Shown here: piece after piece, positions 32,050 to 35,123 of the stretch
Position numbering within the stretch: the stretch's first letter is position 1
How the letters are laid out: each line of letters opens with the position of its first letter
Assembly: GCF_044647545.1 (NCBI RefSeq)
Contig: NZ_CP172818.1
Length of the DNA stretch: 64,000 nt
DNA from: Escherichia coli
GTDB taxonomy: Bacteria > Pseudomonadota > Gammaproteobacteria > Enterobacterales > Enterobacteriaceae
Reading direction: 5' to 3' (one strand)
Program-made: the position numbers and the translations under genes
Notes under the pieces: model-generated
What the model saw: only the letters and a program-made list of their open reading frames with translations
The model's database searches: none
Told to the model about the DNA's origin: nothing

Positions 32050-34506
32050 TTAATGACAAGGTAAAATCAGGCGTTTGGTCGTGTCTTCCAGACGTTCTGG
32101 CAGATGAATAATGCAGCTTTGCTCACCCCAGACCACGGTAAACAGTTGATTTTCAGCGACACCGCTTAACCAGGCATGTCCTTCCTCGCCAACCATACCC
32201 ACGCTAATGCCGCTGTCATCCTGGCGGATATCCGCACCGAGGGGAGGGAACTGACCGCTGGCGTTGCGTATGATGACGTTAACGTCTTTACCGGAACGGG
32301 AAGCCAGTGATTTGTAACCTATCGCGCCTTCAATCCATGTTTCCTTGATGACGTTTTCTGCAACTGTTACGCCGTCGGGTAAGTCATTCATGTTCACCGC
32401 CACGGTGGAAGGCTGGTAACTGGAAATCAACGGCACCACCGCAATGCCAAAATGGTTGGTGTAGTCGAGATTGCCCTGAACCGGAATATCTGCCACGCCA
32501 TCGGTGCTGACCATCAGGCGTGGTTCATTGGTGGAGCTGCGGCGATGAAATGCTGCACCATATTGGGTTGCGGTGAAAGAACCGCTCCAGCTGCTGCTGA
32601 CGGAACTGTAATCACTGGCGGCATAGGTACCAGAAATATCCCACTCACCCGCTGAACTCAGGTGCTGATAGTTACCGCTCACCTGGGCTCCATTGTCCGG
32701 ACGATCGGATTGCAGTCCGGCAGACATGCCCCAGCTATTACGTTCATCCAGCGTATCGTTCCACGACATGCGGTGTATGGTGCTGTGGCTACTGTTTTGC
32801 ATGTCATAGCCAACCCGACCACCGTTACCGAAGGGGAGCGAAATCGACAGATAAATCTGGTTGTCGCGATCTTTATCTTCGTAGTGGGTCGTATTGAATG
32901 ACGTCGAAATCGAGATATCTCTCCAGTCACCAATATCAACATTAAAACCTGCTGTGATGTTGGCGGTCGTGGAGGCGTCTGCATTCCACCAGGTTTGATG
33001 TAGCAGGTTGGCGTAAAGATTGAGGTTTAGTGGGGTAATCGGTTGGCCCACGGATAAGCTGATCGTCTGTTTTTCGTCCTGCGCATCGCTGTCGTTGTAT
33101 TTGTGATCCAGATAGTTGGCGTAGCTGTGAAAATGACGATCTGAGAAGCGATAAGCGGCGAGCGAAATCGTGCTGTTGGTGGCATCCACTTGTTTGCTGT
33201 AATTAAAACGGTAGCTTAAGCCCCGCTCGTCCTGCTGAGTATCAAAATGGCTACTGGCCCAGGTGACATCAAAGGACAGTGCGCCAAGCCACAGCATATT
33301 TTGCCCGATACCCATTGCGGCAGAATGGTAGTCATCATCAGAAATCAGCAGGCCGCCGTACAGCGAGGTGTTTGAGAGCATCCCCCAGGAAACTTCATTG
33401 CTAAAAAAGGTTTCATTTTCAGTTTGATGTGACATGGAAGGCCGTGGCTGACCCGCGGCCAATTTATAGCGAACCTGTCCCTGGCGAGTCAGGAAGGGCG
33501 TCGATGCTGCCGAAACCTGGAAATTGTTCACCCGACCATCTTCTTCCGTCACTTTGACATCCAGCGTGCCCTGAACAGACTGATTGAGGTCATCAATAAT
33601 AAACGGGCCTGGCGGGACTTTTTTCTGGTAAATGACGCGGCCTGATTGACTGATCGTCACCGTGGCATTGGTCTGTGCAATACCGCTAATTTGTGGGGCG
33701 TAGCCACGCAGCTCCCACGGTAACATTCGATCGTCACTCGCCAGTGCCGCGCCGGTATAAGAAAAACCATCGAAAATATTGGAACTGAAATCGGTTTCGC
33801 CGAGGGTTAACTTAGAGCCTAATTGCGGTAATGGACGAAAAAGATAGGTGCGCGATATTCCGCCTGACTGGTCATGGTTATCTTCGCTATCGGTCTTATT
33901 AAGCTGGTAATCACTGCGTAAGCGCCATGCCCCGGCGTTAATTCCGGCGGTACCGTAGGCATTCAGGTTAGTGCTGCTGCTGCCGTCCTGTGGGCGGTAG
34001 CTGCTGGCAAACAAGTTGTAATCCATCAGGACACCGGCAACACCTTCTTTCCATGTAGAGGGGGGAGCCCAGTTTTCTGAGTGCCACGCCAGCCAGGCTT
34101 GCGGAATACTAATATTCAGTTGCTGATTGGCTTGATCGAAATTGAAGAGCATTTCAGGTCGGGAACTGAAATCAATACACCGATCTATCTGTGGCAAGGA
34201 CTGACGGATATCTGGTTTTAAACCAAATTTATCGACCAGTGAATCATTGATGCATGGAATGGTTTTGTCACCCTTTTTTTGCCAGTTAATTTTTTGCCCA
34301 TTACTGATTTTGTTGTTATTCACCGCAACGCTAACAAAATATTCACCGGGAGCAATGACTCCTTTTTCCTTTAATAATGAAATATCAATGCGGTCGCGCA
34401 TTGATTTATCGAGAACATTCAGATTGAATTCGACCGCCATTGCGCAAGGCATCGCCATGACCAGGCAGGATACAAAAGAGAGTCGATAAATATTCACGGT
34501 GTCCAT
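32050..34506 (-). CDS. ybgQ: Outer-membrane fimbrial usher
   Basis: About 815-818 aa usher; start chosen at the ATG after the intercistronic hairpin; a GTG three codons downstream is an alternative. Confidence 0.8.
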   Translation of the reverse strand: MDTVNIYRLSFVSCLVMAMPCAMAVEFNLNVLDKSMRDRIDISLLKEKGVIAPGEYFVSVAVNNNKISNGQKINWQKKGDKTIPCINDSLVDKFGLKPDIRQSLPQIDRCIDFSSRPEMLFNFDQANQQLNISIPQAWLAWHSENWAPPSTWKEGVAGVLMDYNLFASSYRPQDGSSSTNLNAYGTAGINAGAWRLRSDYQLNKTDSEDNHDQSGGISRTYLFRPLPQLGSKLTLGETDFSSNIFDGFSYTGAALASDDRMLPWELRGYAPQISGIAQTNATVTISQSGRVIYQKKVPPGPFIIDDLNQSVQGTLDVKVTEEDGRVNNFQVSAASTPFLTRQGQVRYKLAAGQPRPSMSHQTENETFFSNEVSWGMLSNTSLYGGLLISDDDYHSAAMGIGQNMLWLGALSFDVTWASSHFDTQQDERGLSYRFNYSKQVDATNSTISLAAYRFSDRHFHSYANYLDHKYNDSDAQDEKQTISLSVGQPITPLNLNLYANLLHQTWWNADASTTANITAGFNVDIGDWRDISISTSFNTTHYEDKDRDNQIYLSISLPFGNGGRVGYDMQNSSHSTIHRMSWNDTLDERNSWGMSAGLQSDRPDNGAQVSGNYQHLSSAGEWDISGTYAASDYSSVSSSWSGSFTATQYGAAFHRRSSTNEPRLMVSTDGVADIPVQGNLDYTNHFGIAVVPLISSYQPSTVAVNMNDLPDGVTVAENVIKETWIEGAIGYKSLASRSGKDVNVIIRNASGQFPPLGADIRQDDSGISVGMVGEEGHAWLSGVAENQLFTVVWGEQSCIIHLPERLEDTTKRLILPCH

Positions 34507-34519
34507 ACCTGATAAATAT

Positions 34520-34545
34520 TTTATGAAAGGCGGCGATGATGCCGC
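34520..34545 (-). terminator. Intercistronic hairpin between the fimbrial major-subunit gene and the usher gene
   Basis: ggcggcatcatcgccgcc followed by a T-rich tract on the reverse strand. Confidence 0.45.
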
Positions 34546-34556
34546 CAAAATAATAC

Positions 34557-35123
34557 TTATTTATAATCCAGCACGTAGGTTGCGTTAGCGGTTACTTCAC
34601 CTGCCGTGACATCGACTGCATTATCAATTTGTTCCATCCAGGCGAAAAAGTTCAGCGTCTGTTCTGATGAGCTTGCATCCAGGTCAAGATCTGGCGCGGC
34701 TGAACCTAATACGATGTTACCGTCATTTTTGTCCATCAGTCGTACACCGACCCCAGTTGCTTCGCCTGCACTGGTGTTGCTCAACAAAGGCGTAGCACCA
34801 GTTGTCTTAGCCGTGCTATCGAAGGTTACGCCAACTTTGGATACCGGCATTCCGCTACCGTTGTCAGAAGCAGGCAGATCACAGTTGATCAAGCGAATGT
34901 CGACGGCCACTTTATTGCTATGATGCTCCCGGTTTATATGGGTTGTCGTGACTTGTCCAAGATCTATGTTTTTATCAATATCTTCTGGATGAATTTCACA
35001 AGGTGCTTCAATAACCTCCCCCTTAAAGTGAATTTCGCCAGAACCTTCATCAGCAGCATAAACAGGTGCAGTGAACAGCAGAGATACGGCCAGTGCGGCC
35101 AATGTTTTTTGTCCTTTAAACAT
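34557..35123 (-). CDS. ybgD: Fimbrial major subunit-like protein
   Basis: 188-aa ORF with signal peptide MFKGQKTLAALAVSLLFTAPVYA and a fimbrial subunit fold. Confidence 0.85.
   Translation of the reverse strand: MFKGQKTLAALAVSLLFTAPVYAADEGSGEIHFKGEVIEAPCEIHPEDIDKNIDLGQVTTTHINREHHSNKVAVDIRLINCDLPASDNGSGMPVSKVGVTFDSTAKTTGATPLLSNTSAGEATGVGVRLMDKNDGNIVLGSAAPDLDLDASSSEQTLNFFAWMEQIDNAVDVTAGEVTANATYVLDYK

Follow-up and report, generated by a model that had tools for sequence, protein, structure and literature searches.

A conserved RNA hairpin after ybgD probably marks the 3′ end of a subunit-only transcript in the cryptic ybg fimbrial operon of Escherichia coli

What is the role of the G-C-rich hairpin that separates the fimbrial subunit gene ybgD from the usher gene ybgQ in Escherichia coli? 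A preliminary description of this locus presented it as a terminator-like structure with a downstream T-tract, of the type commonly used by chaperone-usher operons to express the subunit in excess. Here, we consider this proposal in the light of the 64,000-nt stretch of E. coli DNA containing the operon (hereafter, the window), and of the alleles, orthologues, and paralogues of the junction. According to our reading, the hairpin probably sets the 3′ end of a ybgD-only transcript, or shields it, making the subunit mRNA more abundant than the ybgQ, ybgP, and ybgO mRNAs, and its role is best understood as that of a weak partial terminator, of an obstacle to 3′ exonucleases, or of a combination of the two.

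The coordinates of the elements discussed here are collected in Table 1, where each window coordinate equals the MG1655 coordinate minus 717672. The product of ybgD is presumed to be the major subunit, and the order subunit, usher, chaperone, followed by a last gene of 345-353 aa, is common to the orthologous loci L023 to L026. The ybg operon is found in about 3,770 of 5,426 complete genomes and is considered cryptic, its silencing by H-NS being credited to Korea 2010 in a passage of PMC3559732. The preliminary description rightly took its architecture to be intact, since each of the four ORFs is open and free of any pseudogene flag, whereas its view of an AT-rich operon is clearly true only for the promoter region (34% GC in 35000..35499), the genes from ybgO to ybgD having a GC content of 43-52%. 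The start of ybgQ is annotated by PGAP as the ATG at 34506, versus the GTG at 34497 in MG1655; in the orthologue L027, an AGG occupies the position of this ATG.

Table 1. Features of the ybg operon and its surroundings in window coordinates
Feature	Coordinates	Strand	Remarks
ybgD	34557..35123	-	First gene of the operon; 188-aa fimbrial subunit, PF00419
ybgD stop codon TAA	34559..34557	-	
10-nt spacer GUAUUAUUUU	34547..34556	-	From the ybgD stop to the hairpin; sequence varies among alleles
RNA hairpin GGCGGC-AUCAUC-GCCGCC	34529..34546	-	Between ybgD and ybgQ
Hairpin 5′ arm	34546..34541	-	
Hairpin loop AUCAUC	34540..34535	-	
Hairpin 3′ arm	34534..34529	-	
UUU directly 3′ of the stem	34526..34528	-	Sole U-run; invariant in sampled Escherichia (0/3 columns vary)
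AU-rich single-stranded spacer CAUAAAAUAUUUAUC	34511..34525	-	Breaks up the U-tract
AGG, Shine-Dalgarno-like element of ybgQ	34510..34508	-	
ybgQ, usher	32050..34497	-	815 aa from GTG 34497 (MG1655 start)
ybgP, chaperone	31307..32035	-	
ybgO, fimbrial/adhesin-like protein	30249..31310	-	353 aa
gltA terminator, canonical	35459..35484	-	GGACCCGCC...GCGGGUUC then UUUUUAUAU; lies 5′ of the ybgD promoter region

A sequence scan of the 59-nt ybgD-ybgQ spacer found no promoter-like site and, because of this, the assembly genes would depend on read-through; the expression of ybgP and ybgO is thus proposed to need transcription past the hairpin. On the other side of ybgD, the gltA terminator insulates ybg from gltA transcription. 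A primary role of the hairpin as a barrier to gltA read-through was also considered and discarded as unnecessary, given the presence of this terminator at 35484..35459 and the fact that the non-syntenic loci L025, L028, and L026 keep the hairpin.

The structure itself is as initially described: a stem of six G-C pairs on the coding strand, closed by a 6-nt loop, which starts 10 nt past the ybgD stop codon and ends 31 nt ahead of the ybgQ GTG, with a ΔG of -11.9 to -13.1 kcal/mol. It stands out from its background, as the 46-nt hairpin context has a folding z of -3.6, with only 1 of 200 shuffles equally stable. In the 64-kb window, the pattern GGCGGC-N6-GCCGCC has one exact match, and four when up to one mismatch is allowed (0.38 expected), while perfect stems with at least six G-C pairs form only about eight distinct hairpins. 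The 80-nt ybgD junction occurs at a median of one place per genome, and an Rfam search of 33500..35600 (E <= 10) returned only noise, with no match at the hairpin. A REP/BIME element was ruled out on these grounds, namely the single-copy locus, the single exact copy in the window, and the lack of an Rfam match.

Indications of a function come from comparing the junction among relatives. Scanning genome contigs with YbgD provided six loci, two of them in likely contaminant contigs, and more distant orthologues were added through protein searches and contig look-ups. Within Escherichia, in a comparison spanning YbgD identities down to 73%, none of the 12 stem columns varies, versus 19 of the 23 columns of the loop and flank (Fisher p = 2e-6), including all six of the loop and all seven of the 5′ flank. 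The distance from the stop codon to the hairpin is 10 nt in all sampled Escherichia but one, E. whittamii, where 50 nt are inserted, and in most orthologues the hairpin lies 6-13 nt from the upstream stop codon. Across 14 orthologous junctions, 88.9% of the cells are paired, compared with at most 65.5% in slid registers, and RNAalifold independently predicts the same helix. Four of the nine pairs have changed on both sides, and the covariation score is 0.222 versus 0.116 in shuffles (0/500 as high), a value that derives from few lineages and from a shuffle control that ignores relatedness. The four innermost core pairs are invariant and, hence, uninformative on whether structure or sequence is kept. 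Two other core pairs can be followed through their intermediates, from G-C to G·U to A-U and from C-G to U·G to U-A, and these wobbles (G·U in L025, and U·G in Superficieibacter electus) pair on the sense strand only. In Nissabacter, whose YbgD is 42% identical, a different and unrelated G-C stem is present at the same site. Altogether, these comparisons indicate that the hairpin is maintained by selection as an RNA structure of the sense strand.

The same wobbles bear on the proposal that the element acts in the DNA, as a palindromic protein-binding or recombination site, or that it belongs to the plus strand or to the REP/BIME family. Even though GGCGGC-N6-GCCGCC is a perfect DNA palindrome with an invariant stem in Escherichia, and an IS1 element is inserted adjoining it in one strain, the wobbles become C·A mismatches on the opposite strand and break the palindrome in the DNA, and the Nissabacter stem bears no sequence relation to it. 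A terminator on the plus strand was ruled out, since the stem is followed there by AAAATAATAC, without a T-run. This whole family of explanations is, therefore, extremely unlikely.

The design is also shared by nearly all chaperone-usher operons of K-12. In nine of these ten operons, the junction after the first gene holds a hairpin with a ΔG of -10.9 kcal/mol or lower, while none of the 25 other intra-operon junctions falls below -7.4 kcal/mol, which bears out the earlier assertion that such elements are common in these operons, in agreement with the papA-papH and fimA precedents. The ybgD hairpin shows two features of this post-pilin class: on the sense strand, it separates the first subunit gene from the genes for the usher and chaperone, and its stem-loop is maintained in orthologues and paralogues. 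That the palindrome arose by chance and has no function would be in keeping with the shortness of the element (18 nt) and with the silence of the operon in the laboratory, but it can practically be dismissed in view of its folding z, the unique match in 64 kb, the conservation of the stem against its flanks, the covariation, and the recurrence in the paralogous operons.

Canonical Rho-independent terminators combine a G-C stem of at least 5 bp and a 3-8-nt loop on the sense strand with a U-rich tract of about 7-9 nt after the stem; the window allele has the former and lacks the latter. Its tail consists of UUU (34528..34526) and then CAUAAAAUAUUU, with CAUAAAAU coming after the UUU, and the first eight bases after the stem (UUUCAUAA) contain four T, one below the threshold of our terminator scan (at least five T in the 8 bases 3′ of the stem), which did not call this site in the window. 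Thus, the downstream T-tract of the preliminary description is reduced to three U. The d'Aubenton-Carafa-type score (d) of the hairpin is borderline, -3.2, ranking about 25th of the 41 candidates in the window and resembling that of many intragenic false positives, with the gltA terminator (+12.3) as calibration point; this score combines modern energy parameters with the 1990 coefficients, and is used solely to rank the candidates of the window, and the alleles, relative to one another. Considering the weak tail, the failure in the scan, and the score similar to false positives, the K-12 junction may terminate transcription to a negligible extent. In their Term-seq tables, Adams et al. 2021 (PMC7815308) list no entry for ybgD, ybgQ, ybgO, or ybgP, the operon being silent in laboratory culture. 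In the literature, 'ybgD' led only to typing and virulence-gene lists, and publications on Yad fimbriae and Shigella adherence factors contained nothing about terminators or ybg transcript levels.

The K-12 allele is, in this respect, the weakest. Its exact junction is present in 924 of 3730 genomes, and among the E. coli genomes that possess the locus, around three quarters have a junction of another type than K-12. The six non-K-12 junctions sampled all form a G-C stem of 7 bp closed by a tetraloop, and their scores range from +3 to +19, versus the negative one of K-12. Four of them have the tail UUUCUUC (UUUCUUCA), which does constitute a U-rich tract, and the other two keep the K-12-type tail UUUCAU, with d = +3.2. 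In L002, which carries the non-K-12 form, the scan places the junction first among its terminator-like sites. Several alleles have five or six U, and the Escherichia-like locus L029 has a textbook terminator (GAAGGCGGCG-AUCC-CGCCGCCUUU, then UUUCG; d = +38), whose tail UUUUUUCG is again U-rich.

Outside Escherichia, UG or CC takes the place of the UUU. The hairpin persists without the U-tract in Superficieibacter and Nissabacter, as well as in two metagenomic contigs related to them, so what is conserved is the hairpin rather than a canonical terminator. Of the seven non-Escherichia orthologues, four have no U-tract, with scores of -23 to -38, and the hairpin is conserved ahead of tails lacking U-runs (CUAAUAC, UAAUACA, UAAGAUA, and CCUAAAU); the lack of a U-tract means that the conserved function need not be termination. 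The terminator-like reading of the preliminary description consequently holds as far as a conserved sense-strand hairpin after the subunit gene is concerned, and not in the sense of a canonical terminator being the conserved item.

These data fit a barrier to exonucleases, and hence a differential mRNA decay, equally well as they fit partial termination. The extreme version of the former would be a pure mRNA-stability element of the malE-malF or puf type, where read-through is complete and decay alone sets the excess of ybgD. The orthologues without U-runs, the weak tail of K-12, and the fimA and ygiL post-pilin hairpins of K-12, which also lack U-tracts (the fimA one still having a mapped 3′ end), all point in this direction, and protective 3′ structures are well documented (PMC5927463). 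However, the UUU is invariant in Escherichia, several alleles have five or six U, and the Escherichia-like L029 has a textbook terminator, a pattern to be anticipated were termination to play a part in this genus. We therefore regard a role exclusively in stability as possible, although unlikely.

Another explanation is that the hairpin forms the core of an sRNA cut from the 3′ region of ybgD and acting in trans on other mRNAs or proteins, like FimR2 from the fimA-fimI spacer. The position and the terminator-like type of the hairpin match those of FimR2, which is annotated in MG1655 and has been characterized (bioRxiv 10.1101/2022.02.17.480891), and the AU-rich spacer downstream would suit cleavage by RNase E. 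Nevertheless, nearly every allele has a different loop and 5′ single-stranded flank, and the variability of all their columns within Escherichia implies that there is no conserved seed. Whereas FimR2 binds CsrA through the GGA of its loop, GGA is absent from 34559..34520; the ybgD hairpin thus lacks the conserved primary sequence, with a loop motif or seed, that characterizes FimR2-like RNAs. Together with the negative results in Rfam and in the Term-seq tables, this makes a trans-acting sRNA very improbable. Somewhat less so, yet still a long shot, is that the hairpin represents a near-universal post-pilin element of RNA processing or stability, not a terminator in essence, to which the U-run of Escherichia was a late addition, and from which a FimR2-like stable fragment might persist. 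If this were true, such a 3′ fragment might regulate in its own right once the operon is on.

Finally, the hairpin could mainly control the translation of ybgQ, for instance by organizing the 5′ leader of the usher cistron. Escherichia sequences are well conserved in the spacer as far as the ybgQ start, and folding predicts another hairpin, weak and of A-U pairs, in which the GUG start is included. Against this, 18 nt separate the end of the G-C hairpin from the AGG, and 31 nt from the GUG, leaving the ribosome-binding site unoccluded, the complete 101-nt fold lacks significance (z = -1.83), and the position of the hairpin follows the end of the preceding gene instead of the start of the usher, all of which renders translational control highly unlikely.

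In the mechanism that we favor, partial termination and protection of the 3′ end would act on the same hairpin. Some RNA polymerases would stop at the hairpin and its UUU, in a weak intrinsic termination for which the K-12 allele would be the least efficient, the non-K-12 junctions carried by most E. coli being stronger, while other polymerases would read through into the assembly genes. The read-through transcripts may then be cut within or beyond the AU-rich spacer, exposing a 3′ end from which exonucleases would trim the RNA until stalling at the G-C stem, leaving a stable ybgD mRNA. The AU-rich spacer (34511..34525), whose ATATT is unchanged in seven Escherichia sequences, is a plausible RNase E-type cleavage site, with a degenerate match to the motif RN|WUU (PMC5927463). 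Through the termination, read-through, and cleavage that we infer, the hairpin would define or protect the ybgD-only 3′ end and, therefore, the resulting mRNA ratio would favor the subunit over the usher, chaperone, and ybgO messages.

Even if these findings will not surprise specialists, they have a modest practical value, as they offer a probable explanation for the excess of subunit over usher in a cryptic but widespread fimbrial operon. The common laboratory allele, K-12, happens to carry the weakest element, which is relevant for expressing ybg from K-12 DNA and for comparing alleles. The distribution of strong post-pilin hairpins (9/10 versus 0/25 elsewhere) could also serve as an annotation rule for uncharacterised fimbrial loci, and the existence of several of them without U-tracts suggests that differential decay may matter as much as attenuation.

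Among the known systems, pap resembles ybg in that its major-subunit gene is immediately followed by a hairpin, with the assembly genes lying beyond it. The reported effects are fewer downstream transcripts, due to the papA-papH partial terminator (PMC6524683), and a stable pilin mRNA, with papA shielded by its 3′ terminator structure; differential decay is also described for cfaAB (PMC5927463). Contrary to ybg, where the usher gene comes directly after the pilin gene, pap belongs to another usher clade and follows the order regulator, pilin, minor subunit, and usher, and its terminator has been mapped experimentally, whereas the ybg hairpin is known from sequence. In the fim operon, as in ybg, the first subunit gene is followed by a spacer of 59-64 nt that contains a G-C hairpin. 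The terminator-like hairpin after fimA, proposed as the terminator of this gene, is required for RNA stability and is the source of FimR2 (bioRxiv 10.1101/2022.02.17.480891), and the fimA-fimI 3′ end, mapped by Term-seq at MG1655 4543708 (PMC7815308), lies 14 nt beyond it. However, the fim hairpin has a conserved sequence with a GGA loop, lacks any U-run, and gives an RNA acting in trans via CsrA, while that of ybg has the UUU and a hypervariable loop without GGA.

With intrinsic terminators in general, the ybg hairpin has in common the G-C-rich stem, the short loop, the sense-strand location past a stop codon, and the U directly 3′ of the stem. It differs from the gltA terminator in its three consecutive U, its four U in the first eight positions, its 6-bp stem, and its score (-3.2 versus +12.3), and also in its location inside an operon, where full termination would silence the assembly genes. 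The malE-malF REP, puf, and cfaAB elements present, like ybg, a stable hairpin conserved between species downstream of the cistron that is both 5′-most and most needed, with an AU-rich region beyond (PMC5927463). Unlike the malE-malF REP, the ybg hairpin occurs once per genome and, whereas most protective structures in that study lie within the downstream coding region, it is intergenic. In view of these comparisons, the ybgD hairpin is best regarded as an ordinary feature of its operon, and as an added case of the papA-papH and fimA-fimI type of element.

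The ybg operon of this window belongs to a K-12-type chromosome (DH1 and other K-12-like strains match 501 nt of sequence around the hairpin at 100% identity; MG1655 position = window position + 717672), and the locus is found in about 3,770 of 5,426 complete E. coli genomes. Its architecture is intact, as the preliminary description had held, with all four ORFs open and none flagged as a pseudogene. The AT-richness claimed there applies to the promoter gap (34% GC), but only mildly to the operon itself (43-52% GC). Silencing by H-NS is known for ybg from the literature only: a passage of PMC3559732, citing Korea et al. 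2010, treats Ybg fimbriae as "core-associated" and many such E. coli chaperone-usher operons as cryptic and H-NS-repressed.

Features of the ybg locus and other elements of the window
Feature	Window position	Strand	Remarks
gltA	35506..36795	minus	own terminator downstream
gltA intrinsic terminator, canonical	35459..35484	minus	GGACCCGCC...GCGGGUUC then UUUUUAUAU
gap gltA-ybgD			382 nt, AT-rich
ybgD	34557..35123	minus	fimbrial subunit, 188 aa
hairpin	34546..34529	minus	stem 34546..34541 with 34534..34529
9-nt direct repeat ATATTTATC	34511..34519 and 34485..34493	minus	around ybgQ start region
ybgQ start, by annotation	34495..34506	minus	PGAP ATG 34506, 818 aa; MG1655 GTG 34497, 815 aa
ybgQ	32050..34497	minus	usher
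ybgP		minus	chaperone
ybgO		minus	353 aa
two identical 41-nt hairpins	19656..19696 and 20917..20957	minus	1,261 nt apart, each then TTTTTCC

The minus-strand junction between the subunit and usher genes reads UAA-GUAUUAUUUU-GGCGGC-AUCAUC-GCCGCC-UUU-CAUAAAAUAUUUAUC-AGG-U-AUG-GACACC-GUG, where six G-C pairs close a 6-nt loop with an energy of -11.9 kcal/mol for the isolated hairpin and -13.1 kcal/mol in context. This GC-rich stem, which the preliminary description had noted, is a real and not a chance feature: its folding z-score is -3.6, only one of 200 shuffles folds as well, GGCGGC-N6-GCCGCC has a single exact match in the 64 kb, and perfect stems with at least six G-C pairs amount to about eight distinct hairpins across the whole window. 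Translational control of ybgQ by this structure is unlikely, since the hairpin ends 18 nt ahead of the Shine-Dalgarno-like AGG. As for the two annotated starts of ybgQ, the orthologue L027 has AGG at the ATG position and retains the GTG together with an upstream CAGG, and therefore the GTG is probably the real start. A weak A-U hairpin is predicted over this GUG, with a fold that is not significant (z = -1.83).

The T-tract ascribed to the coding strand was borne out only in part. Three U follow the stem, but the run is then interrupted (CAUAAAAU), and the site is absent from the list of a simple terminator scan with a threshold of at least 5 T in 8 bases. On a d'Aubenton-Carafa-type score, used solely as a relative ranking, the hairpin obtains d = -3.2, about 25th of 41 candidates on both strands of the window and among several intragenic false positives. 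The gltA terminator, missed by the simple scan because of a stem mismatch, obtains +12.3. The two identical 41-nt hairpins elsewhere in the window probably belong to a duplicated element.

Within E. coli, 924 of 3,730 genomes have the K-12 junction without any change over its 80 nt, and the remainder differ from it at 4-6 positions. All six non-K-12 junctions that were sampled have G as the first loop base, adding a seventh G-C pair and leaving a tetraloop (GGCGGCG-CUAU/UCAU-CGCCGCC); four of them carry a UUUCUUC tail, a form that ranks as the top terminator-like site of its region in the scan. These junctions reach d = +3 to +19, with +3.2 for the two that have a K-12-type UUUCAU tail. In sequence, the Escherichia hairpin is built like an intrinsic terminator of weak to moderate strength, and K-12 has its weakest version among the Escherichia sequences sampled. 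The ybgD gene is itself a divergence hot spot (loci L001-L003): K-12 and EC96 are 74.6% identical in ybgD, 97.5% in the first 1500 nt of ybgQ and 99% in gltA, and the K-12 ybgD allele is a minority one (about 920 of 3,770 genomes). The pattern is suggestive of diversification of the exposed major subunit, or of its allelic replacement. In E. coli SCPM-O-B-9427 (L004, 748..1530), an IS1 sits directly behind GCCGCCTT of the hairpin; usher, chaperone and part of ybgO have been lost by deletion, and ybgD is left with its hairpin.

The comparison across the genus took in K-12, two further E. coli alleles, strains E69 and SCPM-O-B-8794, Escherichia sp. E1V33, E. whittamii and a metagenomic contig, and spanned YbgD identities as low as 66-73%. 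Neither the 12 stem positions nor the UUU vary, and variation falls on the loop (6/6 positions), the 5' flank (7/7) and the tail (6/10), that is, 0 of 12 variable columns in the stem vs 19 of 23 in the loop, flank and tail (Fisher p = 2e-6). Such hypervariability of loop and flank, plus the absence of a GGA motif, makes it unlikely that the element is a FimR2-like sRNA. In E. whittamii (L008, ~1747..1800), a 50-nt insertion with its own inverted repeat (GTCATAT...ATATGAC) separates the ybgD stop codon from the conserved hairpin, which remains intact downstream with its UUUCUUC tail.

Orthologues outside Escherichia were collected by protein search and contig look-ups from two Superficieibacter genomes, where the ybg loci also adjoin gltA, four metagenomic contigs and Nissabacter. 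The order subunit, usher, chaperone and a last gene of 345-353 aa is kept in the four whole-operon loci (L023-L026), and in 7/7 orthologues a G-C hairpin lies 6-24 nt past the subunit stop codon, the one in Nissabacter occupying the same position with a stem of unrelated sequence. In a 14-sequence alignment, 88.9% of the helix cells are paired vs at most 65.5% in slid registers, four of nine pairs show changes on both sides, and the covariation score (0.222 vs 0.116 in shuffles) is reached in none of 500 shuffles; RNAalifold independently predicted the same seven pairs. These comparative data effectively exclude a chance palindrome. Two core pairs run through wobble intermediates (G-C > G·U > A-U and C-G > U·G > U-A) that pair in the sense-strand RNA only, which argues against a DNA-level palindrome and a plus-strand role; together with the single-copy state of the locus, this renders a DNA site or REP element unlikely. 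The U-run is an Escherichia trait: of the tails outside the genus, four of seven lack one (CUAAUAC, UAAUACA, UCAAUAC and CCUAAAU; d = -23 to -38), and the other three (UGUAAGAU, UGUUAUUC and UGUUUAUUC) score -16 to +5. Across the family, it is therefore the hairpin that is conserved rather than a canonical terminator. Two short contigs with non-enterobacterial labels, a Collinsella MAG (L005; YbgD match of 100% aa, full length) and Alkalicoccobacillus porphyridii (L010; 92% aa, residues 1-26), most likely represent contamination of those assemblies.

The evidence best supports a hairpin that forms the 3' end of a ybgD-only mRNA and protects it, with the subunit message exceeding that of the usher and chaperone. 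Polymerases would partly stop at the hairpin and the rest would read through into the assembly genes; termination must be partial because these genes lie downstream and no promoter-like site was found in the 59-nt ybgD-ybgQ spacer. Read-through transcripts would then be cleaved, and 3' exonucleases would stall at the G-C stem. We consider this combination of partial termination and exonuclease stalling probable, and a pure stabiliser acting without termination rather improbable. The preliminary description is correct in its essentials, with a weaker T-tract than it implied, and its proposal of a partial terminator for subunit excess is partly supported: the sense-strand hairpin is conserved, but the U-run is short here and missing from four of the seven outside tails. 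Since the hairpin starts 10 nt past the ybgD stop codon, the terminating ribosome may reach the stem base, and ybgD translation may conceivably be coupled to hairpin formation in this way.

That chaperone-usher operons commonly use such elements agrees with a survey in which ybg and the other MG1655 operons (L011-L021) were folded at every intra-operon junction. A hairpin of dG <= -10.9 kcal/mol follows the first subunit gene in nine of ten operons (fimA, ybgD, yadN, ecpA, sfmA, elfA, yfcV, ygiL and yraH; the exception is yehD), vs none below -7.4 at the 25 other junctions, most of which are <36 nt long. It starts 6-33 nt past the stop codon in eight of the nine, and at 131 nt for sfmA. The longest spacer of the operon also follows the first subunit gene (34-219 nt vs at most 66 nt elsewhere), except in fim, where that of fimC-fimD is 2 nt longer. 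The U-tract is good in yraH, ecpA and yadN and absent in ygiL and fimA, which suggests processing or stability rather than termination in some operons. The fimA hairpin, the core of the annotated sRNA FimR2, lacks a U-tract, yet a primary Term-seq 3' end maps to MG1655 4543708, 14 nt past it (PMC7815308).

The MG1655 record carries no annotation of the ybgD-ybgQ hairpin, and a literature search found no published description of it. Its closest precedents are papA-papH, where partial termination lowers the downstream pap transcripts (PMC6524683) and the papA mRNA is shielded by a 3' terminator structure, and cfaAB and malEFG, classic examples of operons whose differential decay involves protective 3' hairpins (PMC5927463 for both). 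A hairpin after the pilin gene is a well-known kind of element in chaperone-usher operons, to which ybgD is a new addition.
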